Notes under the pieces: model-generated
Told to the model about the DNA's origin: nothing
Databases searched by the model: none
The model's input: only the letters and a program-made list of their open reading frames with translations
Shown here: positions 4,273 to 15,136 of the stretch, piece after piece
Layout of the letters: each line of letters starts with the position of its first letter
Numbering within the stretch: the first letter of the stretch is position 1
Source of the DNA: a phage
DNA: 64,000 bases
Reading direction: 5' to 3' (one strand)
Assembly: GCA_012690745.1 (NCBI GenBank)
Contig: GCA_012690745.1_4086.2
Program-made: the position numbers and the translations under genes

Positions 4273-4364
4273 CTGTTGTCATGGGGTATATTATGCCAGT
4301 ACTTGATAATGCTGTCAATACTTTTTTTTACTATCCAGTACAGAAAACTATTTTTAAAAAGTAC

Positions 4365-4392
4365 TTGCAAACTATGTTTAAAGGCGTATAAT
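4365..4392 (+). promoter_or_regulatory. sigma70-like promoter driving a conserved ~80-nt leader / candidate small RNA (4395-4475)
   Basis: -35 TTGCAA 4365-4370, -10 TATAAT 4387-4392; leader near-identical to 14797-14875. Confidence 0.65.
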
Positions 4393-4394
4393 GT

Positions 4395-4475
4395 TTTACA
4401 TCAGGACGGGGAACGAAATAAGTAACTTCCCGTTAAGTAGCCCAGGAGTAAGGCACACGAAAAACTCCCCTGATA
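4395..4475 (+). ncRNA. candidate small RNA / structured leader (copy 1)
   Basis: Transcribed between two tandem promoters; near-identical copy at 14797-14875, divergent copy at 7262-7330; contains hairpin cgggaa-N13-ttcccg; no ORF. Confidence 0.35.
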
Positions 4476-4482
4476 AAATAGT

Positions 4483-4510
4483 TTGACAAATGTTTTTAAA
4501 AGCGTATAAT
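4483..4510 (+). promoter_or_regulatory. sigma70-like promoter
   Basis: -35 TTGACA 4483-4488, -10 TATAAT 4505-4510. Confidence 0.7.
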
Positions 4511-4542
4511 ACTTACATCAACTACTGAATGAGGGTTATAAA

Positions 4543-5154
4543 ATGAAAACTATCACTACTACTACTTTCGTTATGGATTTTTCTGAATTGAACGCAGAAC
4601 AACAAACGTCAGCTATCGAACTGGTTCGGGAACGTGAAAAAAACTCAAACGACAATTATTTTTCTGAAAGTGAAATTGAATACTATAAAGAAACAGTACT
4701 ACCGGAATATGGCATTAATGACGCTGAAATACAATTCAGTGGTTTTTGGTCCCAGGGTGACGGTGCATCAATCAGTACTGACCACGTTGACGCAGTGAAG
4801 TTTTTACGCAAGGTTAGAGCGTTAACTAAGTATCGCTCAATCCGTCACCTGCTGAATGAAGATGAATTATCTATGAGGGTACAGCGTTCTCAATCCCGCT
4901 ACTCACACGAAAACACTGTAAGCGGGTACATTGAATCGGGGTACACTGATTTAACAGCAAAACAGGAAGCGTTAGCCAATGAGCTTGAGGAATTGCTTAC
5001 TGTTACTATTCGTGAATTATCTCGCAAGTTGTACCGTGATTTAGAGAATGCATATGAGGATCAATTCACTACTGAGAACATCACGGCACTGATCGAGGGT
5101 AACGAGTATCAATTCAATGTTATTGATGGCGTAGTAGAATCAATCGCATATTAA
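4543..5154 (+). CDS. hypothetical protein (203 aa)
   Basis: Track ORF; RBS GAGGG; contains FSGFWSQGDGAS segment; family not identified. Confidence 0.7.
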   Translation: MKTITTTTFVMDFSELNAEQQTSAIELVREREKNSNDNYFSESEIEYYKETVLPEYGINDAEIQFSGFWSQGDGASISTDHVDAVKFLRKVRALTKYRSIRHLLNEDELSMRVQRSQSRYSHENTVSGYIESGYTDLTAKQEALANELEELLTVTIRELSRKLYRDLENAYEDQFTTENITALIEGNEYQFNVIDGVVESIAY

Positions 5155-5209
5155 TTTAGTACTGAGATAATGGCGGGGAATGGTTCCCGCCTTTACTGAG
5201 GAATATCTA

Positions 5210-5497
5210 ATGAGCAAAGTAATTAGCTATACAGTATTAAGCAAGTCATTATCTATTAGCCAGTGCACTGATGGTTATTGGCTTTATGATGAATCGCGTG
5301 GCATGAATTTAGCTATGCGTGCAAAAACTGCTGAGGCGGCGTATCTTGAGGCACTGGAATACTACCAGGAACGATTAAAGGAAGTAGAAAACGATTATAA
5401 TAACCTGAAAGCGAAAGTAGATCATTTCGTCGGGCAATTCGTTGACGATGACGAGGAAGACGGGCACTACTGCGACCGTTGCGGATCTTACAGTTAA
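5210..5497 (+). CDS. hypothetical protein
   Basis: Trimmed from track 5180 to ATG 5210 with RBS GAGGAA; track start lies in hairpin 5173-5192. Confidence 0.6.
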   Translation: MSKVISYTVLSKSLSISQCTDGYWLYDESRGMNLAMRAKTAEAAYLEALEYYQERLKEVENDYNNLKAKVDHFVGQFVDDDEEDGHYCDRCGSYS

Positions 5498-5514
5498 GTA
5501 CTAAGGATTATCTA

Positions 5515-5721
5515 ATGAGTGATTTAATTGAACGTATCAAAGAGCTTGAAGAAAAAGAATTACAGTTAATCGGATTGCGTAATAAAGTTTATTCAGAGCT
5601 TGGAGGCTTCATACAGGCTTGGGATAGTGGTGATCCTGATGCTTTACCTGCTAACCGCCAGGCGATGATCAATGATGTGAGAAGTGTCTTTGATTATGTT
5701 TTAAAAAGTACTGGACACTAA
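5515..5721 (+). CDS. hypothetical protein
   Basis: Trimmed from track 5479 to ATG 5515 (RBS AAGGA); starts just after upstream stop. Confidence 0.55.
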   Translation: MSDLIERIKELEEKELQLIGLRNKVYSELGGFIQAWDSGDPDALPANRQAMINDVRSVFDYVLKSTGH

Positions 5722-5739
5722 GCAATAAAGGCGTATAAT
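5712..5739 (+). promoter_or_regulatory. sigma70-like promoter with 5' hairpin (5751-5772)
   Basis: -35 TGGACA 5712-5717, -10 TATAAT 5734-5739. Confidence 0.6.
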
Positions 5740-5791
5740 ACTTTATATCGAGAGCGGGAATAGTTCCCGCTACTAATGAGGAATACTACAA

Positions 5792-5956
5792 ATGAATACT
5801 TTTACCTTCGCTCAATTGAACGCCCTGGATGTATTGTCTGATGCTTTGCGGGATGCAACTGAAAGCGGTTTATTTGACAATGTTGACATTCACCCTGATG
5901 TAATTAATAATTTTTGTGATGCTATCGCAGAAGTACTGGAAGATCTAAAAAAATAA
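5792..5956 (+). CDS. hypothetical small protein (54 aa; not in ORF track)
   Basis: ATG 5792 after RBS GAGGAA, downstream of promoter and hairpin; stop TAA 5954-5956. Confidence 0.45.
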   Translation: MNTFTFAQLNALDVLSDALRDATESGLFDNVDIHPDVINNFCDAIAEVLEDLKK

Positions 5957-5966
5957 TAGAAAGTAC

Positions 5967-5994
5967 TTGCAATTAGTTTTTAGTACTGTATAAT
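5967..5994 (+). promoter_or_regulatory. sigma70-like promoter with 5' hairpin (6007-6025)
   Basis: -35 TTGCAA 5967-5972, -10 TATAAT 5989-5994. Confidence 0.7.
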
Positions 5995-6044
5995 AGTTTA
6001 CATCAAGGGGAGAAATGGTTCTCCCTGGTAATGAGGAAAATAAA

Positions 6045-6266
6045 ATGGCTAATATCACTACTCTTTCCCAACTGGAAGCACTGGTTAAATCTATGCGGGA
6101 ACATGCCGACAATATCGGCGTAAAAGATCCAGCCGTTTGCTTCTGCGACGAAATGAATGATGATACACTGGTAATAGCAGAAGTACAAGATATTTCTAAC
6201 TATTCATCGCGTTACACTGGCGGCGTAGCAAATAAAGGTGACTTCTGTTTATACCTTACCAAATAA
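6045..6266 (+). CDS. hypothetical protein
   Basis: Trimmed from track 6015 to ATG 6045 with RBS GAGGAA. Confidence 0.6.
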   Translation: MANITTLSQLEALVKSMREHADNIGVKDPAVCFCDEMNDDTLVIAEVQDISNYSSRYTGGVANKGDFCLYLTK

Positions 6267-6271
6267 CAACG

Positions 6272-6301
6272 CGGGGAGATAATAACTCCCCGTTACTTTT
6301 T
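6272..6301 (+). terminator. rho-independent terminator
   Basis: Stem cggggag / ctccccg, loop ataataa, then T-rich ttacttttt. Confidence 0.6.
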
Positions 6302-6434
6302 CAGTACTGAATCATTTAATAGACGGATCTCGGCACCCTGTGGGTTAGTGACTGTATCGTCTTTATGTAGTAATTATGCCAGTACTGGATGCAGTTGTCA
6401 ACAATTATTTTTCAAATACTTTTTATTAAAATAC

Positions 6435-6462
6435 TTGCTATTAGTTTTTAAACGCGTATAAT
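6435..6462 (+). promoter_or_regulatory. sigma70-like promoter with 5' hairpin
   Basis: -35 TTGCTA 6435-6440, -10 TATAAT 6457-6462; hairpin ggggagcggttcccc. Confidence 0.65.
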
Positions 6463-6509
6463 GTTTTGCATAGGGGGAGCGGTTCCCCTGGTAACTAAGG
6501 AATAAGAAA

Positions 6510-6746
6510 ATGGTCGAACAAATCAAATCAACGTCTTCGAATGTAACGGGAACGGTAGCACACTTTACTAGTGATGAATCGCGGGGCGTTCCCTATTGTG
6601 CTGTACATGTAAACACTGAGGGTAACTACTGGTTTACGGTTTACGGATCATATTCATTTGGACGGCCAGGGCATCAAAAAATTCTGGATAAAGTACAACC
6701 AACGGGTAAAAATATCACTGCCGAAATGTTTTATAAAAAATCATAA
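6510..6746 (+). CDS. hypothetical protein
   Basis: Track ORF; RBS AAGGAA. Confidence 0.6.
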   Translation: MVEQIKSTSSNVTGTVAHFTSDESRGVPYCAVHVNTEGNYWFTVYGSYSFGRPGHQKILDKVQPTGKNITAEMFYKKS

Positions 6747-6751
6747 AGTAC

Positions 6752-6779
6752 TTGATAATAGTTTTTAGTACTGTATAAT
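6752..6779 (+). promoter_or_regulatory. sigma70-like promoter with 5' hairpin
   Basis: -35 TTGATA 6752-6757, -10 TATAAT 6774-6779; hairpin gggggagcggttccccc. Confidence 0.65.
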
Positions 6780-6830
6780 ATTTTACATCGCAAGGGGGAG
6801 CGGTTCCCCCTGGTAACTAAGGATAATCAA

Positions 6831-7130
6831 ATGAAAATTGCAATCATCGCCCTGGCTTTATCTGTTTCCTCTTTCGCTGTTAATGCGTCGTTAGATGTAA
6901 GTAGTGAAAAATTCATTCAGTGCACTGTAGCGATGACCAATGAAAGTACTGGCGAGATTGTTTTAAAGGATTTAGAGATCCAGCCCGAAGCATTTAAAAA
7001 CGGGCCGTTCCATGAAGAAGACGAAAACGGTAGCACAACAATTTATTACGATGCAAGTACTAAACGCGGTTCGGTCACTGTAATGGATACTGAGAAAGTA
7101 ACGCACACAGGAGTAATTAACTGTTTATAA
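6831..7130 (+). CDS. putative secreted/periplasmic small protein
   Basis: N-terminus MKIAIIALALSVSSFAVNA-S looks like a Sec signal peptide with AxA site; RBS AAGGA. Confidence 0.6.
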   Translation: MKIAIIALALSVSSFAVNASLDVSSEKFIQCTVAMTNESTGEIVLKDLEIQPEAFKNGPFHEEDENGSTTIYYDASTKRGSVTVMDTEKVTHTGVINCL

Positions 7131-7147
7131 TCTAGTACTGAATCACT

Positions 7148-7176
7148 AGCCCACTTATACAGTGGGCTTTTTTGTT
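7148..7176 (+). terminator. rho-independent terminator
   Basis: Stem agcccact / agtgggct, loop tatac, T6 tract. Confidence 0.75.
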
Positions 7177-7226
7177 TTTGTAGTATCGTAGTACTGCATA
7201 CTTTGAAAATAGTTTTAAAAAAGTAG

Positions 7227-7254
7227 TTGACATTACCAGGGAAAAGCGTAGAAT
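7227..7254 (+). promoter_or_regulatory. sigma70-like promoter followed by ~100-nt leader (divergent copy of the 4395-4475 leader)
   Basis: -35 TTGACA 7227-7232, -10 TAGAAT 7249-7254; leader begins catcaagacggggaac. Confidence 0.6.
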
Positions 7255-7368
7255 GTATTACATCAAGACGGGGAACATTAAGTAGACCGCCAGTAAGTCG
7301 AATGAAAAACTGGACACGTCAAACAAACTTTGATAAACTAACTTAAACTTTAATTGAGGATTTATAAA

Positions 7369-7851
7369 ATGGCTAATGTAAAATCATTTCTGAAAGCACT
7401 GATTTCTAACGATACTGTTATTGCTGCTGAATTGCTGGCTGACCTGGATAATGATACCATGAAAGCAGTACGCAACAATTTTAACATTGCTTACAGTGAA
7501 GCGAAAGAACTACAAGCCAAAAAGGTAGCAGAACTGGAAGAACAGAAAAAAGCCCGTGAAGCAGAACTGCAAGCAACAATAGAAAGTATTCAGGCGGCGG
7601 TGTCTGGTTTAGATCTGGAAGTGGTTATTGAAATGGCACATAAAGCCCTGGCGGTTAAGTACGGTGAAGATAAGCCGGAATCTAAGCCTAAAAAATGGAT
7701 TCAAGAACGTGTTACTGTTGTCCTTGATAACGGGGAAGAACATTTGATTCCTGTACGCGGTAACTGCATTGCGGTAGTACTGGATGCAATCAAAGAAAGC
7801 GGTATGACTCGCGAGGAATGGATCGAAGCTCACCGCAAAGTTGAAGCATAA
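7369..7851 (+). CDS. hypothetical protein (coiled-coil-rich, 160 aa)
   Basis: Trimmed from track 7354 (TTG) to ATG 7369 with RBS GAGGA. Confidence 0.65.
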   Translation: MANVKSFLKALISNDTVIAAELLADLDNDTMKAVRNNFNIAYSEAKELQAKKVAELEEQKKAREAELQATIESIQAAVSGLDLEVVIEMAHKALAVKYGEDKPESKPKKWIQERVTVVLDNGEEHLIPVRGNCIAVVLDAIKESGMTREEWIEAHRKVEA

Positions 7852-7872
7852 CAATTAAAGTACTGAATCACT

Positions 7873-7900
7873 AGCCCACTGTATAAGTGGGCTTTTTTGT
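7873..7900 (+). terminator. rho-independent terminator
   Basis: Stem agcccac / gtgggct, loop tgtataa, T6 tract. Confidence 0.75.
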
Positions 7901-7907
7901 GTTTATC

Positions 7908-8022
7908 GTTTACCAGGCCACCAGCACCGCCTAGAATCGATTCTAACGCATTAAACTGATTATCTGATGCATCGCCCTAGCTGGTGGCGTTAAGGTCGTT
8001 AGAATGCGATTGAGGACGTTTA
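7908..8022. repeat. Complex palindromic region: arms ccaccagc (7908-7915) / gctggtgg (7970-7977), 14-bp perfect palindrome tagaatcgattcta (7922-7935), and cgttagaatgcg motif (7987-7998)
   Basis: Read directly; cgttagaatgcg also at 2492-2503 and 12043-12054. Confidence 0.6.
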
Positions 8023-8052
8023 AAGTATTTTGCAAAAAGTAATAAAAAGTAC

Positions 8053-8080
8053 TTGCACGATTAAGAGATTAGCGTATAAT
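8053..8080 (+). promoter_or_regulatory. sigma70-like promoter with 5' hairpin
   Basis: -35 TTGCAC 8053-8058, -10 TATAAT 8075-8080. Confidence 0.7.
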
Positions 8081-8135
8081 GTTTTACATCGAGAGGGGGA
8101 AACGGTTCTCCTTCCAAATCAAAGGAATCAAAACA

Positions 8136-8363
8136 ATGGCTATCGTAATCGCTTATGTAACTGGTACTACTGGCACTTCTTCTACTGTTGCTGTAATTAC
8201 CAACAAGAAAGGTGCGGAATTACATTCTGCAATGGATACCTGGGCGGTAAATGAGTTCGGTCAGTGGGCAAGTGTAGCATATGTTGAAACCTATCAAGTG
8301 CCAACCATTAGCTTAACGGATCTCGGTGTAGATCGTATCCTTTGCCTGGATGAATTAAATTAA
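8136..8363 (+). CDS. hypothetical protein
   Basis: Trimmed from track 8079 (ATG in -10) to ATG 8136, RBS AAGGA; starts MAIVIAYV. Confidence 0.6.
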   Translation: MAIVIAYVTGTTGTSSTVAVITNKKGAELHSAMDTWAVNEFGQWASVAYVETYQVPTISLTDLGVDRILCLDELN

Positions 8364-8371
8364 AAAAGTAC

Positions 8372-8399
8372 TTGCAAAGTAAATCAGATAAAGTATAAT
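8372..8399 (+). promoter_or_regulatory. sigma70-like promoter with 5' hairpin (8412-8430)
   Basis: -35 TTGCAA 8372-8377, -10 TATAAT 8394-8399. Confidence 0.7.
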
Positions 8400-8449
8400 A
8401 CATTACATCAAGGGGAGAAATGGTTCTCCCTGATAATGAGGAAACTAAT

Positions 8450-8593
8450 ATGAAAACTTGTCAATGTGGTAAAAAATCTATTACTGGTTTAAAGCGGGGC
8501 GTTGCTCTTTGCCAGTACCATTATAATTTACAAGTATGGGGTAAAGAATGGGCCGACCAGGTGGAAGCAGCAAAGAAAGCAAAAAGTAAGTAA
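8450..8593 (+). CDS. hypothetical small Cys-rich protein (47 aa, possible zinc ribbon; not in ORF track)
   Basis: ATG 8450 after RBS GAGGAA; CQCG...CQYH spacing. Confidence 0.45.
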   Translation: MKTCQCGKKSITGLKRGVALCQYHYNLQVWGKEWADQVEAAKKAKSK

Positions 8594-8612
8594 AATTATT
8601 ATCACAGTACTA

Positions 8613-8641
8613 TTGACATAGATTGATAGTACTGGCATAAT
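8613..8641 (+). promoter_or_regulatory. sigma70-like promoter (TTGACA-N17-CATAAT class)
   Basis: -35 TTGACA 8613-8618, -10 CATAAT 8636-8641; same architecture at 11472, 11751, 12274, 19570. Confidence 0.65.
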
Positions 8642-8674
8642 AGATTTTATCAAGACAACTAAGAGGAAATTAAA

Positions 8675-9019
8675 ATGGCTAATATCAACACTATCGCAAA
8701 ACAAAATATCAACCTGTCTTCTGTTGAAGTTGTACATATTGCCGCTCGGCGTTGGTTCCAGGCTTCATATGGTAACACTTATTTCTCTTTAAGTGTAGAC
8801 GTAGAAATTGATGGTAATTTTATTGAAGTAGTAAACGTGCCGTTCCAATATGGATACGGGGATCACTTTGACACTGTAGCAATGGAAGAATTTAGCAAGG
8901 TTATTAATATGGAAGATAAAGAGTTTTTACGCGGTTCTTATCTTTCCCGTTTTTGCCGTGACAATAATATCACTGTTTACAGTTCGGTAACTGATGTTAA
9001 ACGCAAAAAAGATCTTTAA
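8675..9019 (+). CDS. hypothetical protein (paralog of 15589..15912)
   Basis: Track ORF; RBS AGAGGAA; shares GNTY...YGYG...DVKRKKD with 15589..15912. Confidence 0.6.
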   Translation: MANINTIAKQNINLSSVEVVHIAARRWFQASYGNTYFSLSVDVEIDGNFIEVVNVPFQYGYGDHFDTVAMEEFSKVINMEDKEFLRGSYLSRFCRDNNITVYSSVTDVKRKKDL

Positions 9020-9099
9020 TTAGCTTTACTTTATGCAGATACTTTGATACAGTGTCTGCATAGGGGAAAGAAATTAAATCAACTTAAGAGGATAGTAAA

Positions 9100-9369
9100 A
9101 TGAAAAATATCAGTACTTTAATCGATGCAGGTACACATGTTCGTCGGTCTATGGTTGCAACCAGTTCTACAAAACAAGTACCAAGCGGTTATCTTGTATT
9201 TGTGCACGATGGAAAACTCCTGGAACGTTCAATCAATTTTGATGTTAAAAACAATTGCCGTTTTATTATCTTTAAGCGTGAACAATATAAAATTGATTTG
9301 CCAGCGAAGCCCATTAGCGGGGCGTACAGCGTACAATCATTGTTTGAGCGTCAACCTTACACCTATTAA
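9100..9369 (+). CDS. hypothetical protein
   Basis: Track ORF; RBS AAGAGGA. Confidence 0.55.
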   Translation: MKNISTLIDAGTHVRRSMVATSSTKQVPSGYLVFVHDGKLLERSINFDVKNNCRFIIFKREQYKIDLPAKPISGAYSVQSLFERQPYTY

Positions 9370-9420
9370 TCAAAACATCGTTAGCGGTCGATTTAGGCCG
9401 CTTATATTGGGGATTATACC

Positions 9421-9693
9421 ATGAACGTTAATCAAGTACTGAATGAGATCGAAAGCATCATTAAACCGATGAAGCGTACTGATGCTATGTTAACACCGGA
9501 AGAATGCCGCCTTTATGAGCGTTACAGCGTCGAACAAGTCCAGGCAATGGCTATGGCTACCCCAGCCGTTTCACCGCCTGAGAATGCGTTACAGGACGTT
9601 ACAGGGGATTATATCATTAATCCAGTACTAGGGAAGATGACTGCAATCACCGAAGATCAAAAAGACTACTTAAGCCAGTACTTAAAAGGTTAA
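9421..9693 (+). CDS. hypothetical protein
   Basis: Track ORF; contains 20-bp segment identical to intergenic 12047-12066. Confidence 0.55.
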   Translation: MNVNQVLNEIESIIKPMKRTDAMLTPEECRLYERYSVEQVQAMAMATPAVSPPENALQDVTGDYIINPVLGKMTAITEDQKDYLSQYLKG

Positions 9694-9698
9694 TTAAT

Positions 9699-9908
9699 AT
9701 GCTTACTGTACAGGATAAGATCGACATCTTAAAGGTTAATATGTATGTGATTGATGCCGTACCTGGTAAAGTATTTGCATACGATGACACCACTGTAAGC
9801 AATTTCTACTATAGCCAGGACGTGGGGGATCTTTCTGTACAGTCGGTTATTGAAAATGTAGTTAATGCAGCGTATGAGCATTTACTTTCAAATAGTACTT
9901 GCAATTAG
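9699..9908 (+). CDS. hypothetical protein
   Basis: Track ORF; 3' end overlaps the next promoter -35. Confidence 0.5.
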   Translation: MLTVQDKIDILKVNMYVIDAVPGKVFAYDDTTVSNFYYSQDVGDLSVQSVIENVVNAAYEHLLSNSTCN

Positions 9909-9926
9909 TTTTTAAACGCGTATAAT
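9899..9926 (+). promoter_or_regulatory. sigma70-like promoter with 5' hairpin (9939-9958)
   Basis: -35 TTGCAA 9899-9904, -10 TATAAT 9921-9926. Confidence 0.7.
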
Positions 9927-9977
9927 GTTTTACATGAAGGGGAGAAATGATTCTCCCCACTAATTAAGGAATATGAA

Positions 9978-10124
9978 ATGAAAGCATCAAAAAAGAGTAA
10001 TACTAAGAAAGCATGTTCACCTTTCGCTGGGGTATTCCCTTTACGTTTCGTTGATGAAGTGGTTTCCTACCCGCCGGGCCTTACTCCTGAGATGGTAGAA
10101 AGTTTGCGTAAATCTAAAAAATAA
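9978..10124 (+). CDS. hypothetical small basic protein (48 aa; not in ORF track)
   Basis: ATG 9978 after RBS AAGGAA; stop TAA 10122-10124. Confidence 0.45.
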   Translation: MKASKKSNTKKACSPFAGVFPLRFVDEVVSYPPGLTPEMVESLRKSKK

Positions 10125-10127
10125 TAC

Positions 10128-10155
10128 TTGCAATTAGTTTTTAGTACTGTATAAT
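10128..10155 (+). promoter_or_regulatory. sigma70-like promoter with 5' hairpin
   Basis: -35 TTGCAA 10128-10133, -10 TATAAT 10150-10155. Confidence 0.7.
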
Positions 10156-10205
10156 TGTTTACATAGAGGGGGAAATGGTTCTCCCCTGATACAAGGAGAA
10201 TCAAA

Positions 10206-10358
10206 ATGAAACAATATAATGCTCGGTTTGATGTTACTATCGGTAACGGCAAAGGTCAATTTTCTTTCAGTACTCGACGCAGTTATACAGAAAACTTCCT
10301 GCGTAATTGTGCACTGACCGCCGCTCAAATTAAACATTATTTTCAGGCTAAAAAATGA
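10206..10358 (+). CDS. hypothetical small protein (50 aa; not in ORF track)
   Basis: ATG 10206 after RBS AAGGAGAA; stop overlaps next start (ATGA). Confidence 0.45.
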   Translation: MKQYNARFDVTIGNGKGQFSFSTRRSYTENFLRNCALTAAQIKHYFQAKK

Positions 10359-10444
10359 AATCATTAGCTTATTACAGTTCGGCCCTGGTCGGTGCATTGA
10401 TCGCGGCGTTGTTAGTAACCTATCTATTCTTTATGGTGATTTAA
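10355..10444 (+). CDS. hypothetical small hydrophobic peptide (29 aa)
   Basis: ATGA-coupled to upstream ORF; sequence MKSLAYYSSALVGALIAALLVTYLFFMVI is one hydrophobic helix. Confidence 0.35.
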   Translation: MKSLAYYSSALVGALIAALLVTYLFFMVI

Positions 10445-10582
10445 ATGAATCCTAACGGTATAATTTACAGTACTCCTAAAACGAAAGCAGATAAAGCGAA
10501 AGCACGTAAAGCGAAAGTAAAGGAGTACATCAAGCAAGGCATGACGCGAAAGGCGGCGATTCTGAAAGCTAAAAATAAATGA
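10445..10582 (+). CDS. hypothetical small lysine-rich protein (45 aa)
   Basis: ATG 10445 one nt after upstream stop; highly basic. Confidence 0.4.
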   Translation: MNPNGIIYSTPKTKADKAKARKAKVKEYIKQGMTRKAAILKAKNK

Positions 10583-10587
10583 AAAAG

Positions 10588-10674
10588 TGGTTGACTTCGG
10601 TCAGCCATTTTGCTATTATATATTCATTGAGAGATAGCTCACTAGCCCACAGGGTGCAGGAGTGTATCTATTGT
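10588..10674 (+). promoter_or_regulatory. Repeated intergenic module copy 1: terminator-like hairpin with embedded TTGACT-N17-TATTAT promoter, then cccacagggtgc element
   Basis: Hairpin tggttgac-ttcg-gtcagcca + TTTT (10588-10611); -35 10591-10596, -10 10614-10619; element 10644-10674. Confidence 0.55.
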
Positions 10675-10723
10675 ATAATGATTGAGTACAGAAAACTATT
10701 TTAAAGTATTTGATAAAAAGTAC

Positions 10724-10751
10724 TTGCATACTATCTCAATAGGCGTATAAT
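10724..10751 (+). promoter_or_regulatory. sigma70-like promoter with 5' hairpin
   Basis: -35 TTGCAT 10724-10729, -10 TATAAT 10746-10751. Confidence 0.7.
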
Positions 10752-10802
10752 GTTTTACATCGCAAGGGGAAACGGTTTCCCCTGGTAATAAGGAAACGAA
10801 TC

Positions 10803-11144
10803 ATGACTATTGCAATTGCTCAATCTAACTTTGAAAACGAAATCATCGCTCAGGCACTGCGTTTAAATGATGGTCGGGCCGAAATCAATTACGGTTTCAA
10901 TAGTGGTGGATGTGAAAAATATCAGTACTTTGTAACGGCTGATGGCTGTGTCCTGGGTATCAATACAGTTATTGTAAACATTCAGAAAATTAATTTCAAT
11001 GATCCAGACGATAGCCAGTTTTACATCACGGGCGTAGACGTGAACTATGAGGATGACTCACTAACTGATGATCACACTGGCGAGAAGTTAGAAAGTGCAT
11101 ACGGTGAAGATGATTATCAGTCCGGTCCAGAAGATTTCGAATAA
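10803..11144 (+). CDS. hypothetical acidic protein
   Basis: Track ORF; RBS AAGGAA. Confidence 0.6.
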   Translation: MTIAIAQSNFENEIIAQALRLNDGRAEINYGFNSGGCEKYQYFVTADGCVLGINTVIVNIQKINFNDPDDSQFYITGVDVNYEDDSLTDDHTGEKLESAYGEDDYQSGPEDFE

Positions 11145-11158
11145 TATTAAAAAATAGT

Positions 11159-11186
11159 TTGACAATAGTTTTTAGTACTGTATAAT
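11159..11186 (+). promoter_or_regulatory. sigma70-like promoter with 5' hairpin
   Basis: -35 TTGACA 11159-11164, -10 TATAAT 11181-11186. Confidence 0.75.
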
Positions 11187-11239
11187 AGTTTACATCAAGG
11201 GGAGAATAGTTCTCCCCACTAACAGAGAGAGAAAACAAA

Positions 11240-11452
11240 ATGGCTAATATCCGCACTGTACTGAAAAATGCAAAACAAGTTTTATTTTCTGATCATGAAA
11301 ATTTCAACAAGGATATCACTGGCGTTCGGAATATCAAAGATGTAAAAAATGTTATGGGTATCTATTGCAATATGAAACGTGTTGGCACGTTCGGCGATAA
11401 AGTACTATACCAGGCAGGGGATTACAATTTTACACTGACTATCATTAACTAA
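11240..11452 (+). CDS. hypothetical protein
   Basis: Track ORF; RBS GAGAGAGA. Confidence 0.55.
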   Translation: MANIRTVLKNAKQVLFSDHENFNKDITGVRNIKDVKNVMGIYCNMKRVGTFGDKVLYQAGDYNFTLTIIN

Positions 11453-11471
11453 AAATATTATCACAGTACTA

Positions 11472-11500
11472 TTGACAACGTTTGATAGTACTGGCATAAT
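11472..11500 (+). promoter_or_regulatory. sigma70-like promoter (TTGACA-N17-CATAAT class)
   Basis: -35 TTGACA 11472-11477, -10 CATAAT 11495-11500. Confidence 0.65.
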
Positions 11501-11543
11501 AACTTTTATCAAGACAACGCATATTAATTTAAGGAATACTAAA

Positions 11544-11723
11544 ATGGCTATTATCGCAAAAACTGAAATCATCGGCCTGGATTCTATCATCATGACGTTT
11601 GAAGATCAAAAAGGGATGTATGTAGTTTCCTATGGTGATTATGTTCGGGAGTATGAAACAGTAGACGAAGCCTTTGAAAGTTACATTCGCCAGGTTAATA
11701 AAGCATACGACGATTACCGCTAA
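11544..11723 (+). CDS. hypothetical protein
   Basis: Trimmed from track 11472 (TTG of the -35) to ATG 11544 with RBS AAGGAA. Confidence 0.5.
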   Translation: MAIIAKTEIIGLDSIIMTFEDQKGMYVVSYGDYVREYETVDEAFESYIRQVNKAYDDYR

Positions 11724-11750
11724 AATATATTACCAGTACTATTAAATCTA

Positions 11751-11778
11751 TTGACAATGTTTGATAGTACTGTATAAT
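11751..11778 (+). promoter_or_regulatory. sigma70-like promoter
   Basis: -35 TTGACA 11751-11756, -10 TATAAT 11773-11778. Confidence 0.7.
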
Positions 11779-11822
11779 AACTTTTATCAACAGTAGTTAA
11801 CTTAACCTAAGAGAGAAAAATC

Positions 11823-11966
11823 ATGACAGCATTAGATTCATTCATCGACGCAGTACTGGCAAAAACTGGCGAGGATCTGACCGCAGAACAATACGCGATG
11901 ATCGAGCAATGCCAGCAAAACGGTAAATCGGTGAAAGATACTGTTAAGATTATCCGCAAGATGTAA
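11823..11966 (+). CDS. hypothetical small protein (47 aa; not in ORF track)
   Basis: ATG 11823 after RBS AGAGAGA; stop TAA 11964-11966. Confidence 0.45.
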   Translation: MTALDSFIDAVLAKTGEDLTAEQYAMIEQCQQNGKSVKDTVKIIRKM

Positions 11967-11972
11967 GATTAT

Positions 11973-12001
11973 AGCCCACTGGTTAACGCTGGTGGGCTTT
12001 A
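11973..12001 (+). terminator. terminator-like hairpin
   Basis: Stem agcccac / gtgggct with 12-nt loop; short T run. Confidence 0.4.
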
Positions 12002-12071
12002 ATCATTTACCCTATACAATGCCAGTACTAAACCGTTTAACTCGTTAGAATGCGTTACAGGACGTTTAACA

Positions 12072-12269
12072 ATGATTAGCATGAAATCAGTACAAAAACA
12101 AATAGAAACATTATCAAAAATTAAACGTAAACAGTACTCCTTAGAATATACAATCAATGGTAACTATCATCTAATGAAAGAAAATAATTTTATAGTCATT
12201 GATGAATCATTGCAGATCATTAGTATAGTACTGAAAGCATTAATCAATGACAGAAAAAAGTTAAAATAA
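12072..12269 (+). CDS. hypothetical protein
   Basis: Track ORF; no strong RBS. Confidence 0.4.
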   Translation: MISMKSVQKQIETLSKIKRKQYSLEYTINGNYHLMKENNFIVIDESLQIISIVLKALINDRKKLK

Positions 12270-12273
12270 TCTA

Positions 12274-12360
12274 TTGACAAATTATGCCAGTACTGGCATA
12301 ATACTTACATCAAGACGAGAACGTCACTAACCCATAGGGTGCACAAATGTAACTATATAA
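12274..12360 (+). promoter_or_regulatory. Promoter (TTGACA-N17-CATAAT) followed by cccatagggtgc element (module variant)
   Basis: -35 12274-12279, -10 12297-12302; element 12327-12360. Confidence 0.55.
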
Positions 12361-12440
12361 TATCGATCAATAAATGATCAAAAAAGTACTGGATCAATTT
12401 AGCATAAGGCGTATAATTCTGATCAAATCTTGATCAAAGG
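12355..12440. repeat. GATC cluster: five GATCAA repeats within ~80 bp in a 250-bp ORF-free region
   Basis: cgatcaataaatgatcaaaaaagtactggatcaa ... ctgatcaaatcttgatcaaagg. Confidence 0.6.
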
Positions 12441-12598
12441 CAATAAACGTAGTTGAAATTATATAGAAAGTACAAAGGCGTTACCATTCGTGGTAATGCT
12501 GGGGAATATGTAGTATCATACGGTTTGAATAAAATCAGTACTAGTAGTATTATTGTAGCATTACAGTACTATAGTATTTTTATAATGAGGTTAAAATA

Positions 12599-12856
12599 AT
12601 GGCTGTTGGATTCGCGAAGGACGGGGCCGAGCAAGACGAGATTAACGCAGTGATTCAGGCCGCTGTAAACCACGCTAGAACGCAAATTAACGCACAAATA
12701 GAATCACTGATACATTGCCTCGACTGCGGCGATAAAATCCCTGAGAATCGCCGCCTGGCCGTTAAGGGGTGTAAGTACTGCATCACTTGCCAGGCTGATC
12801 ATGATAGCATATTCAAACGCAATCCCCGTAATTGTTGGCATAGATCTATGAGATAA
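12599..12856 (+). CDS. DksA/TraR-family C4-type zinc-finger protein
   Basis: CLDCG-DKIPENRRLAVKG-CKYCITCQ matches the four-Cys TraR/DksA finger; RBS GAGG. Confidence 0.7.
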   Translation: MAVGFAKDGAEQDEINAVIQAAVNHARTQINAQIESLIHCLDCGDKIPENRRLAVKGCKYCITCQADHDSIFKRNPRNCWHRSMR

Positions 12857-12862
12857 AAAGTA

Positions 12863-12890
12863 TTGACAGTGCTGTTAGTTAGTGTATAAT
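12863..12890 (+). promoter_or_regulatory. sigma70-like promoter
   Basis: -35 TTGACA 12863-12868, -10 TATAAT 12885-12890. Confidence 0.75.
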
Positions 12891-12919
12891 ATTTTATATC
12901 TTAACTGAGGATTGAAATC

Positions 12920-13276
12920 ATGGGTATACAACATATCACGCGTACTACAGACAATGGTGAGATCACTGGCTATCAAGTACAAGGCAAAGTAGCACAATTG
13001 CAGTACTGGTTTGTTAAACGTGGCATTGTTGCACCGGATCTTGATTATGATCGTGTAGCGTTTATTGATTCTCTTTATGTTGATCCCGATAATCGCGGTA
13101 ACGGTGAAGGTACTGAATTAATGAATGCCTTTATTGATGCCGCCGATGATTCAGATTGTATCATCTTAGAATGCGATACGGGAGAAGATAACGAGTTTAA
13201 TCTTAAAGAATGGTATGAAAGTTTTGGTTTTGAAGTACTGATTAACTGTGAATATCCTATAATGATTTTATCCTAG
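12920..13276 (+). CDS. putative GNAT-family N-acetyltransferase
   Basis: SLYVDPDNRGNGEGTELMNAF resembles GNAT motif A; RBS GAGGA. Confidence 0.5.
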   Translation: MGIQHITRTTDNGEITGYQVQGKVAQLQYWFVKRGIVAPDLDYDRVAFIDSLYVDPDNRGNGEGTELMNAFIDAADDSDCIILECDTGEDNEFNLKEWYESFGFEVLINCEYPIMILS

Positions 13277-13279
13277 TAC

Positions 13280-13307
13280 TTGCATTTAGTTTTAAGTACT
13301 GTATAAT
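13280..13307 (+). promoter_or_regulatory. sigma70-like promoter with 5' hairpin (13320-13338)
   Basis: -35 TTGCAT 13280-13285, -10 TATAAT 13302-13307. Confidence 0.7.
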
Positions 13308-13355
13308 AGTTTACATGAAGGGGAGAATAGTTCTCCCCACTACAAGGAAAGACAA

Positions 13356-13544
13356 ATGCAAAACTTATCAAGTATTTTAGTACAAGATGATTTTGGTAAT
13401 CCTGGAAGTGCTATCATCGTTCGGGGCAATAAGGCAACGTTTGTTATTGCTGGTGGACCTGTACAGCGTAGCATTAAAAACAATGCAGTTACAATCAATA
13501 ATGTTCGCTATCGCTTAGATAAAGAATTGATTCATAAACTGTAA
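13356..13544 (+). CDS. hypothetical protein
   Basis: Track ORF; RBS AAGGAAAGA. Confidence 0.5.
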   Translation: MQNLSSILVQDDFGNPGSAIIVRGNKATFVIAGGPVQRSIKNNAVTINNVRYRLDKELIHKL

Positions 13545-13571
13545 TATTAATTTAATAGAGGATAAAAATAA

Positions 13572-13895
13572 ATGTATATTCATACTACTATCACAAAAGA
13601 AGTTCGTTGTCAATTCGAAAGTATCCCTGGTGTATGTTTCATTACAGGCACTTTCTCACCTGGTGACCGTGATAATCCAGTACTGTTACAGTTACGCCAT
13701 CCATTATGGGATAAAGCATTTGATCTGCCGTTGAATGAATTCGCAACCACTGCTGATAAGTACATTAAAAATATTCGCGAGAATGATTGCCTATTCATTA
13801 ATGCTTTTAGTGATGCCGCGTTAAGTGAGATCCATGCTGTATTGGTTGCAATCATGGAATCAATGGAGAAAACTAAATTCAAACAAGGTGAATAA
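13572..13895 (+). CDS. hypothetical protein
   Basis: Track ORF; RBS AGAGGA. Confidence 0.55.
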   Translation: MYIHTTITKEVRCQFESIPGVCFITGTFSPGDRDNPVLLQLRHPLWDKAFDLPLNEFATTADKYIKNIRENDCLFINAFSDAALSEIHAVLVAIMESMEKTKFKQGE

Positions 13896-13901
13896 AAACT
13901 A

Positions 13902-13929
13902 TTGACAATGTAATCTAGTACTGTATAAT
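13902..13929 (+). promoter_or_regulatory. sigma70-like promoter with 5' hairpin (13942-13961)
   Basis: -35 TTGACA 13902-13907, -10 TATAAT 13924-13929. Confidence 0.75.
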
Positions 13930-13978
13930 AGTTTACATGAAGGGGAGAAATGATTCTCCCCACTAAGAGGAAAGAAAC

Positions 13979-14191
13979 ATGCAAGGTCAACTAATCGTTC
14001 GTAAATGGTCTGATACTAACGAAAAACCGTGGGATGTTCAATATATCGGACCGGACGGTGTTTCACGTTATCAACCTGGCGTAACGCATAGTACTGAGCA
14101 ATATGCCGCCGCTCACCGTGAACGCCTGTTAGAATCTATGAAACAGGGATTCTGTGAAAAATTCATTCAAGATCATTGGCTGAAAGATTAA
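13979..14191 (+). CDS. hypothetical protein
   Basis: Track ORF; RBS AAGAGGAAA. Confidence 0.55.
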   Translation: MQGQLIVRKWSDTNEKPWDVQYIGPDGVSRYQPGVTHSTEQYAAAHRERLLESMKQGFCEKFIQDHWLKD

Positions 14192-14208
14192 TAGAAGGAG
14201 TACAGCTT

Positions 14209-14301
14209 ATGCAAATGAATCCGATGATTGTTGTGTTAGCTGTACTTATGATCATTCATGCCATCGTAGAAGTACTAACACAATCAGGAGTAATACAATG
14301 A
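14209..14301 (+). CDS. hypothetical small hydrophobic peptide (30 aa)
   Basis: ATG 14209 after RBS AAGGAG; MQMNPMIVVLAVLMIIHAIVEVL; stop overlaps next ATG. Confidence 0.35.
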   Translation: MQMNPMIVVLAVLMIIHAIVEVLTQSGVIQ

Positions 14302-14468
14302 TCCAAGTAGAATTATCAGTACTGAAAGATCTGTTTTATCGGTTAGGCACTACTGGCGAATACCCTAAAGGGGATACTGCTAAACTATACATTGCATTGG
14401 ATGTATGGCAACGTAATGAACTGGCTAACGCCTGGCGTAAAGGTAAATCAGAGGGGATTGCAGCATGA
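14298..14468 (+). CDS. hypothetical small protein (56 aa)
   Basis: ATGA-coupled to neighbours. Confidence 0.4.
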   Translation: MIQVELSVLKDLFYRLGTTGEYPKGDTAKLYIALDVWQRNELANAWRKGKSEGIAA

Positions 14469-14614
14469 AAGAATTCTTATTCGAAGTAGTGTTCCAGGGC
14501 GTAGGAAGTAACCAACTGATTCGATCAAGTGGTTACAATGTTAACCAGGCATGGAATAACATTAAACAAATGTACCCGAACGCTATCACATATCGCAACC
14601 CAAAACAAGTTTAA
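14465..14614 (+). CDS. hypothetical small protein (49 aa)
   Basis: ATGA-coupled; stop TAA 14612-14614. Confidence 0.4.
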   Translation: MKEFLFEVVFQGVGSNQLIRSSGYNVNQAWNNIKQMYPNAITYRNPKQV

Positions 14615-14628
14615 AAAGATTTAAAAAA

Positions 14629-14713
14629 GGGATTGACTCCGGTCAGTCCCTTTGCTATTATATATGCATAGAAACAATCTAACCCACAGGGTGCATAAAT
14701 GTATCTATTATAT
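14629..14713 (+). promoter_or_regulatory. Repeated intergenic module copy 2
   Basis: Hairpin gggattgac-tccg-gtcagtccc + TTTG; -35 TTGACT 14633-14638, -10 TATTAT 14656-14661; element 14679-14713. Confidence 0.55.
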
Positions 14714-14761
14714 GCTGGTGGCTAGTACTATCAAGTACTGAAAACTATTTTTAAAAAGTAC

Positions 14762-14789
14762 TTGCATTGTACTTAGAATCAAGTATAAT
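14762..14789 (+). promoter_or_regulatory. sigma70-like promoter driving conserved leader / candidate small RNA (14797-14875)
   Basis: -35 TTGCAT 14762-14767, -10 TATAAT 14784-14789. Confidence 0.65.
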
Positions 14790-14796
14790 GTTTTAC

Positions 14797-14875
14797 ATCA
14801 GGACGGGGAACGAAATAAGTAACCCCGTTAAGTAGTCCAGGAGTAAGACATACGAAAACCTCCCCTGATAAAATA
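14797..14875 (+). ncRNA. candidate small RNA / structured leader (copy 2)
   Basis: Near-identical to 4395-4475 with a few substitutions; again followed by a second promoter. Confidence 0.35.
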
Positions 14876-14877
14876 GT

Positions 14878-14905
14878 TTGACAATAGAAATTAAACGAGT
14901 ATAAT
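14878..14905 (+). promoter_or_regulatory. sigma70-like promoter
   Basis: -35 TTGACA 14878-14883, -10 TATAAT 14900-14905. Confidence 0.7.
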
Positions 14906-14935
14906 ACTTACATCAACCACAAAGAGGAATACAAA

Positions 14936-15136
14936 ATGAAACATTTTACTTTCGGTGTAGTAGGCTTTACAGTATCCAGCGGCGTTTATAAATCAGAACG
15001 CGGTGCTAAAAATGCAGCAAGTCGGGCGTATGGTTCACAGCGTGACTTACAGGTCGGTTATATTAGTAACATTAATAACATGTTTATTCCTGTTTCACAG
15101 CGTAAAGCGGGTAACATGAAATGGGAAACAATTTGA
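14936..15136 (+). CDS. hypothetical protein
   Basis: Track ORF; RBS AAGAGGAA. Confidence 0.5.
   Translation: MKHFTFGVVGFTVSSGVYKSERGAKNAASRAYGSQRDLQVGYISNINNMFIPVSQRKAGNMKWETI

Follow-up and report, generated by a model that had tools for sequence, protein, structure and literature searches.

Three copies of a conserved, non-coding and compactly folded RNA domain are present in the window (the whole 64,000-nucleotide stretch of DNA analyzed here, which is the early region of a PBECO4/121Q-like jumbo coliphage), where they very probably form the 5′ ends of transcripts made from strong early promoters. They belong to a family of tightly folded RNAs that directly follow strong early promoters and occur in several enterobacterial phage groups unrelated to one another, and this family is apparently undescribed. 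As the best overall explanation we tentatively propose a folded RNA family acting as an autonomous immediate-early module or decoy.

Copies of the element in the window

The first two copies (4400-4474 and 14797-14869) show 92.8% identity across 83 nt in a pairwise alignment and differ by six substitutions and one 2-nt indel. A 28-nt element probe matched only 4399-4426 and 14796-14823 in the window, where shuffled sequences give an expectation of 0. Two such copies with few differences, each between tandem promoters, had been noticed in the first-pass annotation and are confirmed by these results. The divergent third copy which it placed near 7262-7330 is also real; it is a shorter relative (about 7260-7334), homologous to the other two in its core and matched by the covariance model, without the first hairpin (P2) and without a second promoter. 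The copies and their parts, all on the + strand, are as follows.

4400-4474, +: copy 1, full three-way-junction form (minimum free energy fold, pair counts, covariance-model match)
4400-4405 / 4469-4474, +: copy 1 closing helix, AUCAGG / CCUGAU
4406-4412 / 4427-4433, +: copy 1 P2, ACGGGGA / UUCCCGU
4435-4440, +: copy 1 AAGUAG
4440-4442 / 4452-4454, +: copy 1 S1, GCC / GGC
4445-4448 / 4465-4468, +: copy 1 S2, GGAG / CUCC
4455-4464, +: copy 1 A-rich loop
7262-7334, +: copy 3, short form with pseudoknot core and closing helices (covariance-model match)
7262-7267 / 7329-7334, +: copy 3 outer closing helix, AUCAAG / UUUGAU
7267-7270 / 7317-7320, +: copy 3 inner helix, GACG / CGUC
7280-7285, +: copy 3 AAGUAG
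7285-7287 / 7297-7299, +: copy 3 S1, GAC / GUC
7290-7293 / 7310-7313, +: copy 3 S2, CCAG / CUGG
14797-14869, +: copy 2 (fold, pair counts, covariance-model match)
14797-14802 / 14864-14869, +: copy 2 closing helix, AUCAGG / CCUGAU
14803-14808 / 14823-14828, +: copy 2 P2, ACGGGG / CCCCGU
14830-14835, +: copy 2 AAGUAG
14835-14837 / 14847-14849, +: copy 2 S1, GUC / GAC, compensatory relative to copy 1
14840-14843 / 14860-14863, +: copy 2 S2, GGAG / CUCC

Promoters and downstream genes

Copies 1 and 2 are each flanked on both sides by a near-consensus sigma70 promoter, and the spacing known from T7 A1 suggests that the copy 1 transcript starts at A4400 (or A4398). The promoters and the genes which follow them are listed below.

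4365-4392, +: copy 1 upstream promoter, −35 TTGCAA (4365-4370), 16-nt spacer, −10 TATAAT (4387-4392)
4483-4510, +: copy 1 downstream promoter, TTGACA, 16-nt spacer, TATAAT, predicted to drive the ORF at 4543-5154 (phrog_5162, function unknown)
7227-7254, +: copy 3 promoter, TTGACA, 16-nt spacer, TAGAAT; copy 3 is the 5′ leader of the gene with ATG at 7369 (phrog_27871)
14762-14789, +: copy 2 upstream promoter, −35 TTGCAT (14762-14767), 16-nt spacer, −10 TATAAT (14784-14789)
14878-14905, +: copy 2 downstream promoter, TTGACA, 16-nt spacer, TATAAT, predicted to drive the ORF at 14936-15136 (phrog_7744, function unknown)

The element is independent of the gene downstream of it. The three downstream genes in the window are unrelated PHROGs, and across phages at least six unrelated genes follow the element, usually with their own promoter in between. 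In a comparison of five independent genomic contexts, identity was 0.91 for the element and only 0.38 and 0.47 for the flanking promoter spacers. No terminator-like hairpin was found between element and gene in 4398-4543 or 14795-14936. A gene-specific attenuator or riboswitch, the first of which had been suggested earlier as a cis-acting control of the downstream gene, was therefore rejected, because a terminator is lacking, a complete promoter intervenes and the downstream genes differ. The same annotation had proposed a small RNA of about 80 nt, and of this the non-coding, structured and presumably transcribed segment with its own near-consensus promoter directly upstream stands; a discrete species is not supported, since no intrinsic terminator was found between element and gene and such an RNA could arise only through processing.

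The element is also non-coding. A mechanical 31-aa ATG frame (4391-4486) overlaps copy 1, with its start inside the −10 hexamer, and is broken in copy 2 by the 2-nt indel, so that the earlier statement of no ORF holds in substance. A leader peptide or small protein was rejected on the same indel, the stops in every frame and the variable length of the P2 loop, and the SD-like AGGAG was rejected as a ribosome signal since it is one strand of the covarying S2 helix. Among known RNA classes, Rfam 15 gave no family match over the whole window, which answers the search that had been proposed; at E<=10 around copy 1 the sole match (13.7 bits) was a chance one, and the T3 and phiA1122 leaders gave nothing relevant. 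ARAGORN reported zero tRNA or tmRNA genes in the window.

RNA fold and covariation

The core follows the pattern AAGUAG-S1-S2-UAAG-N-C-NNANGAAA and then the complementary S2 strand, and all three window copies fit it (AAGUAG, N-C-NN, 4-5 nt of S2, (A)UAAG-N-C, NNANGAAA, S2 complement). Read from the aligned sequences, this invariant core is a predicted small H-type pseudoknot, AAGUA-[G-N-C]-NN-[S2 5′ strand]-(A)UAA-[G-N′-C]-NNANGAAANN-[S2 3′ strand]. The P2 hairpin is placed 1-2 nt upstream of it, and an upstream segment pairs with the nucleotides immediately 3′ of S2 to close the fold; this segment is the transcript 5′ end in the jumbo-phage and rV5/phi92-like versions and the P2 loop in T7-like phages. 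The hairpin had first been noticed as cgggaa-N13-ttcccg; a hairpin is present, but that pairing is not found in both copies, the actual helices being ACGGGGA/UUCCCGU in copy 1 (7 bp, one G-U) and ACGGGG/CCCCGU in copy 2 (6 bp). The conserved part is the pseudoknot core downstream, beyond this single hairpin.

Pairs were counted in a MAFFT alignment made without regard to the structure. All 40 distinct sequences form every one of the four core S2 pairs (100%; types CG/GC, CG/GC/UA and UA/AU/UG), and the middle pair of S1 is formed in 39 of the 40 (AU in 28, UA in 7, CG in 4, one exception); in slid-partner controls the pairing falls to 17-43%. Within the window alone this S1 pair is C:G in copy 1, U:A in copy 2 and A:U in copy 3, and the third S1 pair changes from C-G to U-A in RaK2, BF25/12 and KKP3828. 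P2 occurs with at least 11 distinct helix sequences and a loop length varying freely from 12 to 15 nt, the closing helix differs in sequence in all 14 class I and II members examined, and in the T7-likes, where the P2 loop pairs with the tail, compensatory changes are seen in three lineages (L026, L035 and L055). S2 was predicted by RNAalifold unaided. Many of the aligned sequences are closely related, so the pair counts overstate the independent events, which by our own rough inspection number about 4 in S2, 3-4 in S1, 3 in the helix between loop and tail and some 10 in P2. Compensatory substitutions, for which a check across copies and related phages had been suggested, are thus present, and the covariation supports a P2 hairpin, an S1/S2 H-type pseudoknot and a closing helix as the probable fold. 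Single-sequence folding z-scores are modest (−1.2 to −3.0), and S1 has only 3 bp, so S1 and S2 could be alternative conformers and not a simultaneous pseudoknot.

It is very improbable that the segment has no function as RNA and is a promoter accessory at the DNA level (an UP element or factor site for the downstream promoter) or a spread relic, for example a decayed small-gene start hitch-hiking with mobile promoter cassettes. Such a reading could draw on the exchange of early-gene cassettes, clearly seen among these phages (the gene start at window position 3205, for example, has near-identical DNA in EmilieFrey), on the T7-like A-tract sitting where the proximal UP subsite of A2 would be, and on the SD-like AGGAG together with an ATG in copy 3 where copies 1 and 2 have ACG. 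The next promoter also uses part of the closing helix's 3′ strand as its UP or −35 region, and some of the conservation could therefore lie at the DNA level. Against this, compensatory changes occur in four helices and the G-U pairs are confined to the promoter strand, which fits RNA over DNA; the next promoter follows at 0 to about 45 nt or is missing altogether (window copy 3, EJP2 copy 3); AGGAG is merely one version of the S2 strand, replaced elsewhere by CCAG, CCUG or CUUG; the indels are not multiples of three; and the element is kept across subfamilies whose surrounding leaders are unalignable.

A small-molecule aptamer (riboswitch-like sensor or sponge) or a self-cleaving ribozyme is also improbable, though less so. 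A compact double pseudoknot whose junction and loop nucleotides are invariant, whose helices covary and whose third loop is A-rich would suit it, such folds being typical of small aptamers (preQ1-I, SAM-II) and small ribozymes, and the element is phage-specific and presumably highly expressed. There is, however, no Rfam 15 match even at E<=10 and no expression platform, and we know of no unusual cleavage of T7 A1 transcripts, which have been used in vitro for decades.

Somewhat more credible, though still unlikely, is an elaborate 5′-end stabilizer or insulator, that is, an enlarged simple 5′ hairpin with no specific partner, protecting the transcript from RppH/RNase E 5′-end-dependent decay or from Rho loading. 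About 30 early promoters (window 1.3-20.8 kb) carry a simple 5′ hairpin, GGGGAGAA-NNN-UUCUCCCC, at the same position, the outer helix AUCAGG/CCUGAU resembles the base of those hairpins (at 8372, for example, AUCAAGGGGAGAAAUGGUUCUCCCUGAU), and in classes I and II the closing helix begins at or near nucleotide +1. A helix alone would suffice for a stabilizer, yet in this element the helices vary freely and it is the unpaired positions, more than 15 of them (AAGUAG, UAAG, ANGAAA), that stay invariant from one phage family to another; the T7-likes have a separate 5′-terminal hairpin, with the element internal, and transcripts of the downstream promoter feed the same gene without the element.

Distribution among phages

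BLAST with the element returned 45 phage records, including Vequintavirinae and Stephanstirmvirinae, and the Munch-version core matched 280 records, including T3, T7M, phiA1122 and phiYeO3-12 at nt ~530-590. The core was also found in other jumbo phages (Munch-like, RaK2, K64-1, Hallingskeid), in Dickeya phage BF25/12 and Salmonella phage KKP3828, and in three Autographiviridae subfamilies. A covariance model trained on 12 T7-like sequences only recovered the three window copies with E 0.002-0.04 and no other credible match in the 64 kb; its best window match was copy 3 (7279-7314), and in copy 1 it matched 4407-4470. In T7, T3 and phiA1122 the family fills the interval from promoter A1 to A2, in T7 as part of the phage's first transcript, and the T7 sequence of this element was confirmed from PMC11863960, Table 1. 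The sequence of the T7/T3 segment is known, yet no description of it as an RNA element was found. E. coli genomes gave no match, and a GTDB scan gave only two true matches, on contigs of 1.1 and 2.7 kb with T7-like A1-A2 sequence, both of which we read as phage DNA and not as genuine bacterial-genome matches.

Possible function

Family members share the strand of a strong sigma70-type promoter and follow it at no more than about 60 nt; these promoters were called by consensus matches and not from mapped start sites. The proposed module would be made by host RNA polymerase as the 5′ end of early transcripts, immediately and at high level, and its function would not depend on the gene that follows. 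Its likeliest role, in itself still doubtful, would be to bind with high affinity, as RNA ligand or decoy, some conserved protein of enterobacteria that belongs to the RNA or transcription machinery or to a defence system. The binding partner, like the 3′ end of the RNA and its stability or processing, is inferred.

A decoy explains the strict promoter proximity and the position at the head of transcription units no better than a cis effect on RNA polymerase would. We consider it unlikely, but only a little behind the ligand reading, that the element is a cis-acting modifier of the transcribing host polymerase, like HK022 put or the natural RNAP-binding aptamers. The nascent fold would stay on its polymerase and would speed it up, reduce its backtracking or let it resist Rho or terminators, so that the first and second promoters of a tandem pair would yield transcripts that behave differently, whatever the downstream gene. 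Consistent with this, the element is never further than about 20-60 nt from the start of a strong sigma70 promoter, always goes with the upstream promoter of a tandem set (T7-like A1, the window upstream promoter), and occurs only in phages whose early genes use the host polymerase. A terminator or terminator-like block usually precedes it directly, in the window (4146-4290, 7148-7168, 14626-14716) as well as in A73, BF25/12 and KKP3828. On the other side, T3 and phiA1122 are already protected from Rho by an rrn-type boxA downstream of A3, and a fold closing onto the 5′-terminal nucleotides suggests a stability requirement needless for a co-transcriptional modifier. In classical in vitro systems the T7 early terminator efficiently stops transcripts begun at A1, a point against put-like readthrough at intrinsic terminators. 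The covariance model, run without filters on HK022 nt 24000-37000 (13.1 kb), where we expect the put sites although they are not annotated in the record, gave a best score of 10.2 bits (E 0.25), and the element is thus not a put homologue.

Comparison with known systems

A close counterpart of the window element is the T7/T3 A1-A2 segment (about T7 nt 536-593), which has the homologous core AAGUAGACAG-CCUG-AUAAGUCNNACGAAAAA-CAGG and the same order of strong sigma70 promoter, element and next sigma70 promoter. Unlike in the window, the T7-like element lies inside the transcript, with its start around +38 and a separate 5′ hairpin ahead of it, its fold is closed between P2 loop and tail (the tail being the A2 −35) and not between 5′ end and tail, and its S2 is CCUG/CAGG as against GGAG/CUCC.

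The HK022 put RNAs are likewise phage-encoded, promoter-proximal, structured early RNAs of about 70 nt made by host polymerase, and both would act whatever the downstream gene. They are, however, two stem-loops and not a pseudoknot, and they are antiterminator RNAs, antitermination by the window element being hypothetical. The preQ1-I and SAM-II riboswitches and the T4 gene 32 leader pseudoknot share with the element a small H-type pseudoknot in a 5′ leader, an A-rich third loop and invariant unpaired positions; the window element differs in having neither an Rfam match nor an expression platform and in being tied to no single gene, where the T4 pseudoknot autoregulates its own.

Precedents for phage RNAs which neutralize a host protein are phiTE pseudo-ToxI, a mimic of a type III antitoxin RNA, and the RNA anti-CRISPRs. 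These decoys are short (~36 nt) and pseudoknotted or hairpin RNAs; unlike them, the element has no tandem repeat array, no Rfam match and no similarity to host sequence. Generic 5′ hairpins, such as the ompA leader and those of the ~30 window leaders, share the extreme 5′ position and a similar base of the outer helix, to which the element adds a conserved pseudoknot and invariant loops common to phage families.

Copies and surroundings of the element

By BLAST, the window comes from a jumbo coliphage of the PBECO4/121Q type (genus Asteriusvirus) and lies in its early region, at the left end. The + strand has about 30 promoter cassettes close to the sigma70 consensus between 1.3 and 20.8 kb (window 1338-20800), built in the order -35, 16 nt, TATAAT, gttttACAUC, short 5' hairpin, SD and ATG, and the leader hairpin is conserved as GGGGAGAA-NNN-UUCUCCCC with variants. 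At three places the usual position of this simple hairpin is occupied by the element studied here.

4400-4474, +, copy 1
7262-7334, +, copy 3 (short form)
14797-14869, +, copy 2

The two full copies reported in the first-pass annotation were recovered with a 28-nt probe, which matched only 4399-4426 and 14796-14823 (0 expected in shuffles), and they share 92.8% identity over 83 nt; the divergent third copy was also found, as a weaker relative beginning at about 7260. The placement between tandem promoters was likewise seen in both full copies, with TTGCAA/TTGCAT-16-TATAAT upstream and TTGACA-16-TATAAT downstream, all near-consensus sigma70-type. The segment is non-coding, and the earlier statement that it holds no ORF stands: a mechanical ORF at 4391-4486 begins inside the -10 hexamer, a 2-nt indel shifts the frame in copy 2, and stops occur in every frame. 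A coding or leader-peptide reading was rejected, since the frames are broken between the copies and the SD-like AGGAG is a strand of a covarying helix.

The initial transcribed sequence of the three elements, ACAUC(A/G)AG..., is similar to the start of the T7 A1 transcript, AUCGAGAGGG, and because of this likeness +1 is placed, by analogy, at A4400, A14797 and A7262. Several of the cassettes begin with ACAUCGAGAGGGG, which is the T7 A1 initial transcribed sequence.

A two-part repeated block lies at the boundaries between early transcription units. Its first part is a 12-bp hairpin, AAAGGGAUUGACUCCGGUCAGUCCCUUU, and its second a 37-nt repeat, TAGCCCAYAGGGTGCRNNARTGTATCTAT, about 30-55 nt after the hairpin.

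10584-10611, 14626-14653, 17929-17956, 20188-20215: boundary-block hairpins
2260, 4197, 10643, 12328, 14680, 17988, 20242, +, boundary-block repeats
4318-4290, 2387-2360, 2171, -, promoters

Inverted copies of a CCCAYNGGGTGC motif are found about 35 nt downstream of the minus-strand promoters. Both full element copies directly follow a boundary block, an arrangement also seen in the Salmonella jumbo phage Munch, and the blocks may serve as terminators or insulators or give rise to small antisense RNAs.

Other repeats were noted in the window. A tandem array of about 24 units with an 8-nt period (1741-1929; units CTAGACGG, CTAAACGG, CTGGATGG and similar) lies close to the early region's left end. 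TTAAACTTTAA, which we take to be similar to 'epsilon', the translational enhancer in the leader of T7 gene 10, shortly precedes the SD of the gene that follows copy 3 (7343-7353) and is also present in Munch (about 3755-3770). Diverged direct-repeat arrays at 22690-27671 and 38474-40530 (families D7 and D12-D16, spacings 215-480 nt) look like tandem paralogous small genes, and the motif GAAGAAGAATACTTTCAGTACAG occurs 8 times between 27.9 and 52.5 kb.

Distribution among phages

The 83-nt segment was found by BLAST at 88-100% identity in 45 phage records, which extend beyond Asteriusvirus to Vequintavirinae (A73, W70, A7_1, A5-4) and Stephanstirmvirinae (outra, muut, EmilieFrey). Every carrier has the promoter-element-promoter layout, with at least six different genes behind the element; in the window the three genes fall into PHROGs that are unrelated to one another and of unknown function, and none matches Pfam. 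Identity of the element over five independent contexts is 0.91, against 0.38 and 0.47 for the 16-nt spacers of the flanking promoters. The element is shown to be a portable module, independent of the downstream gene.

The same promoter-hairpin cassettes are present in Vequintavirinae and Stephanstirmvirinae. Small early genes near-identical in DNA but different in position were observed between window 3205-3444 and EmilieFrey 1663-1902, and between window 8108 and A73 1667. These sharers are phages of about 145 kb of the Stephanstirmvirinae or Vequintavirinae, and near-identical early-gene DNA at different positions in them and in the jumbo phage indicates that promoter-gene cassettes have recently been shuffled between phage families with no relationship to each other.

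Strict pattern scans for the Asteriusvirus form returned only 121Q from IMG/VR and only two metagenomic contigs; the looser core pattern was the productive search. Through copy 3 a related element was located in Munch, and the core of this Munch version matches 280 phage records, among them T7M, phiYeO3-12 and the following two.

T3, nt 533-568, family core
phiA1122, nt 553-588, family core

In these four T7-like phages the core lies within the A1 promoter transcript and ends at the -35 of A2. The same stretch is present in T7, as seen in a published construct sequence (PMC11863960 Table 1). A degenerate core pattern gave 34 genuine IMG/VR loci, mostly T7-like, and further members were found in RaK2, K64-1, Erwinia phage Hallingskeid, Dickeya phage BF25/12 (Corkvirinae) and Salmonella phage KKP3828 (Slopekvirinae). 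Three candidates were discarded as false positives: a locus in a tRNA region (L045), a match inside a CDS of Pseudomonas phage HPP-Temi, and a 14-bit partial match at window 46597. As a separate feature, an rrn-type boxA, GCTCTTTAACAA, occurs downstream of A3 in T7-like early leaders (T3 about 778-792, phiA1122 about 793-807), about 200 nt downstream of the element.

In host genomes, BLAST against 5,426 E. coli genomes gave no match to the element. The degenerate core pattern returned 10 loci from 185,579 bacterial and archaeal genomes (GTDB), and only 2 are true matches, on short contigs of 1.1 and 2.7 kb with T7-like A1-A2 sequence which are taken to be phage DNA; the other 8 are chance matches lacking S2 complementarity (S1 and S2 being the core helices described below), four of them dksA coding sequence by translated motif. 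Host mimicry was rejected on these results. The element is shown to be specific to phages and common to several enterobacterial phage families by horizontal transfer; it is one copy of a pseudoknot RNA motif that occurs widely and is not confined to a single jumbo phage.

Structure and covariation

Single-sequence folding gave the same Y-shaped fold in all full-length versions (z-scores -1.2 to -3.0), made up of a closing helix AUCAGG/CCUGAU, the hairpin P2 (ACGGGG(A)/(U)CCCCGU) and a 3' hairpin GGAG/CUCC. Stronger evidence for the structure comes from comparing the members. Pairs were counted in a MAFFT alignment of 40 distinct sequences that was not fitted to any structure; one alignment, labelled A2, was left out because MAFFT had put a 1-nt S2 gap in the wrong place.

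Four core pairs of S2, which RNAalifold predicted unaided, are paired in 100% of the 40 sequences, with types CG/GC, CG/GC/UA and UA/AU/UG. S1 is a 3-bp helix in which G-N-C after AAGUA pairs with G-N'-C after UAA; its middle pair is AU in 28 sequences, UA in 7 and CG in 4, with one exception (C:A in EmilieFrey), and the three window copies carry all three types between them. In RaK2, BF25/12 and KKP3828 the third S1 pair is also changed, from C-G to U-A. When control pairings were slid by 1-3 columns the paired share dropped to 17-43%. S1 and S2 are interleaved and so form an H-type pseudoknot, in which loop 1 has 2 nt, loop 2 reads UAA or AUAA, and loop 3 is A-rich and about 10 nt long. Alternatively, the two helices could belong to different conformers.

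P2 stands 1-2 nt upstream of AAGUAG, and at least 11 helix sequences were counted for it. In each of the 14 members of classes I and II that were examined, the stretch following S2 pairs with the transcript 5' end, and the sequences involved differ. In the T7-likes the tail pairs with the P2 loop (GUCAA/UUGAC, where UUGAC is the -35 of A2), and three T7-like lineages with a changed tail have a compensating loop (GAUUAG/CUAAUC, GUCAC/GUGAC, GUCAUC/GAUGAC). The structured RNA that the first-pass annotation proposed is thereby borne out, compensatory changes across copies and related phages being present in the S1, S2, P2 and closure helices. The unpaired AAGUAG, UAAG, C and ANGAAA show little or no variation. 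G-U pairs arise only on the promoter-strand reading; that the segment is a DNA-level element or a relic is considered extremely improbable.

Structural classes of the family
Class I, full three-way junction: window copies 1 and 2, Munch, L054 (a further retrieved locus), RaK2, BF25/12, KKP3828
Class II, short form without P2: window copy 3, LTH01, EJP2 copy 3, Hallingskeid, K64-1
Class III, T7-like: P2, pseudoknot and loop-tail helix

A covariance model trained on 12 T7-like sequences only matches window 7279-7314, 14804-14865 and 4407-4470 (E 0.002-0.04), and with filters off nothing else credible was returned from the 64-kb window. The results show an RNA domain that is conserved, does not code for protein, folds compactly and is encoded right behind strong early promoters.

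Possible function

The element would be the first RNA made on infection and a self-contained module. Invariant unpaired nucleotides stand among helices that covary freely, a pattern pointing to a partner which recognises the element specifically. Tentatively ranked first is that the RNA acts in trans, as a ligand or decoy for a conserved host protein: the element has its own promoter apart from that of the gene, occurs in several copies in jumbo phages, and has closed fold ends which would suggest a need for stability, and in T7 RNase III frees the leader from the mRNA, which is counted in its favour. A plain 5' stabiliser is regarded as unlikely.

Nearly as likely as the decoy is a cis effect on the transcribing polymerase like that of put, the cis-acting antiterminator RNAs of phage HK022, for which speak the strict promoter proximity of the element and its position at the head of transcription units, right after terminator-like blocks. 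Homology to put RNA itself was rejected, as the covariance model found nothing over 13.1 kb of HK022 (nt 24000-37000, where put sites are unannotated and which we take to be the region holding them). The cis-acting attenuator suggested earlier was dropped in its terminator form, there being no terminator-like site between element and gene and a full promoter intervening. The other earlier reading, an independent RNA, may hold.

Beyond the decoy, the element may be a new functional RNA class, the very first product of these phages, serving counter-defence or takeover without any protein; it would have passed horizontally among at least five phage lineages and been overlooked in T7 for decades. 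We hold this to be quite unlikely. Such an RNA might be an aptamer sequestering a host immune signalling nucleotide, an inhibitor of a nuclease or an RNA-binding defence protein of the host, or a small ribozyme of a new kind; an aptamer or ribozyme as such is judged very doubtful.

Comparison with known RNAs and value of the findings

The Rfam search advised in the first-pass annotation gave no family of Rfam 15 for the element, at gathering or at permissive thresholds (E<=10), and ARAGORN found it to be no tRNA or tmRNA. Presumed short likenesses to tmRNA, the 16S 3' region, CRISPR repeats and ToxI were dropped, as they fall only at non-conserved positions. In the literature covered, which leaves out most subscription journals, the T7 sequence appears only in primer and construct listings where the RNA element is undescribed, and an older description may exist.

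The observation holds and is of greater interest than first proposed. The element is further evidence of promoter-leader cassette exchange between unrelated coliphage families. If its fold is functional, it would be a compact, easily mutated experimental target of about 35-75 nt, a candidate new Rfam family and a device within the first ~100 nt transcribed by these phages, bearing on how early transcription is secured or host responses are evaded before any phage protein exists. T7, the best-studied phage, and many therapeutic-candidate phages (T7-like, rV5-like, phi92-like and RaK2/PBECO4-like jumbo) would then carry an unrecognised, horizontally shared RNA device. As far as searched, the pseudoknot motif is uncatalogued, and T7 also carries it between A1 and A2.
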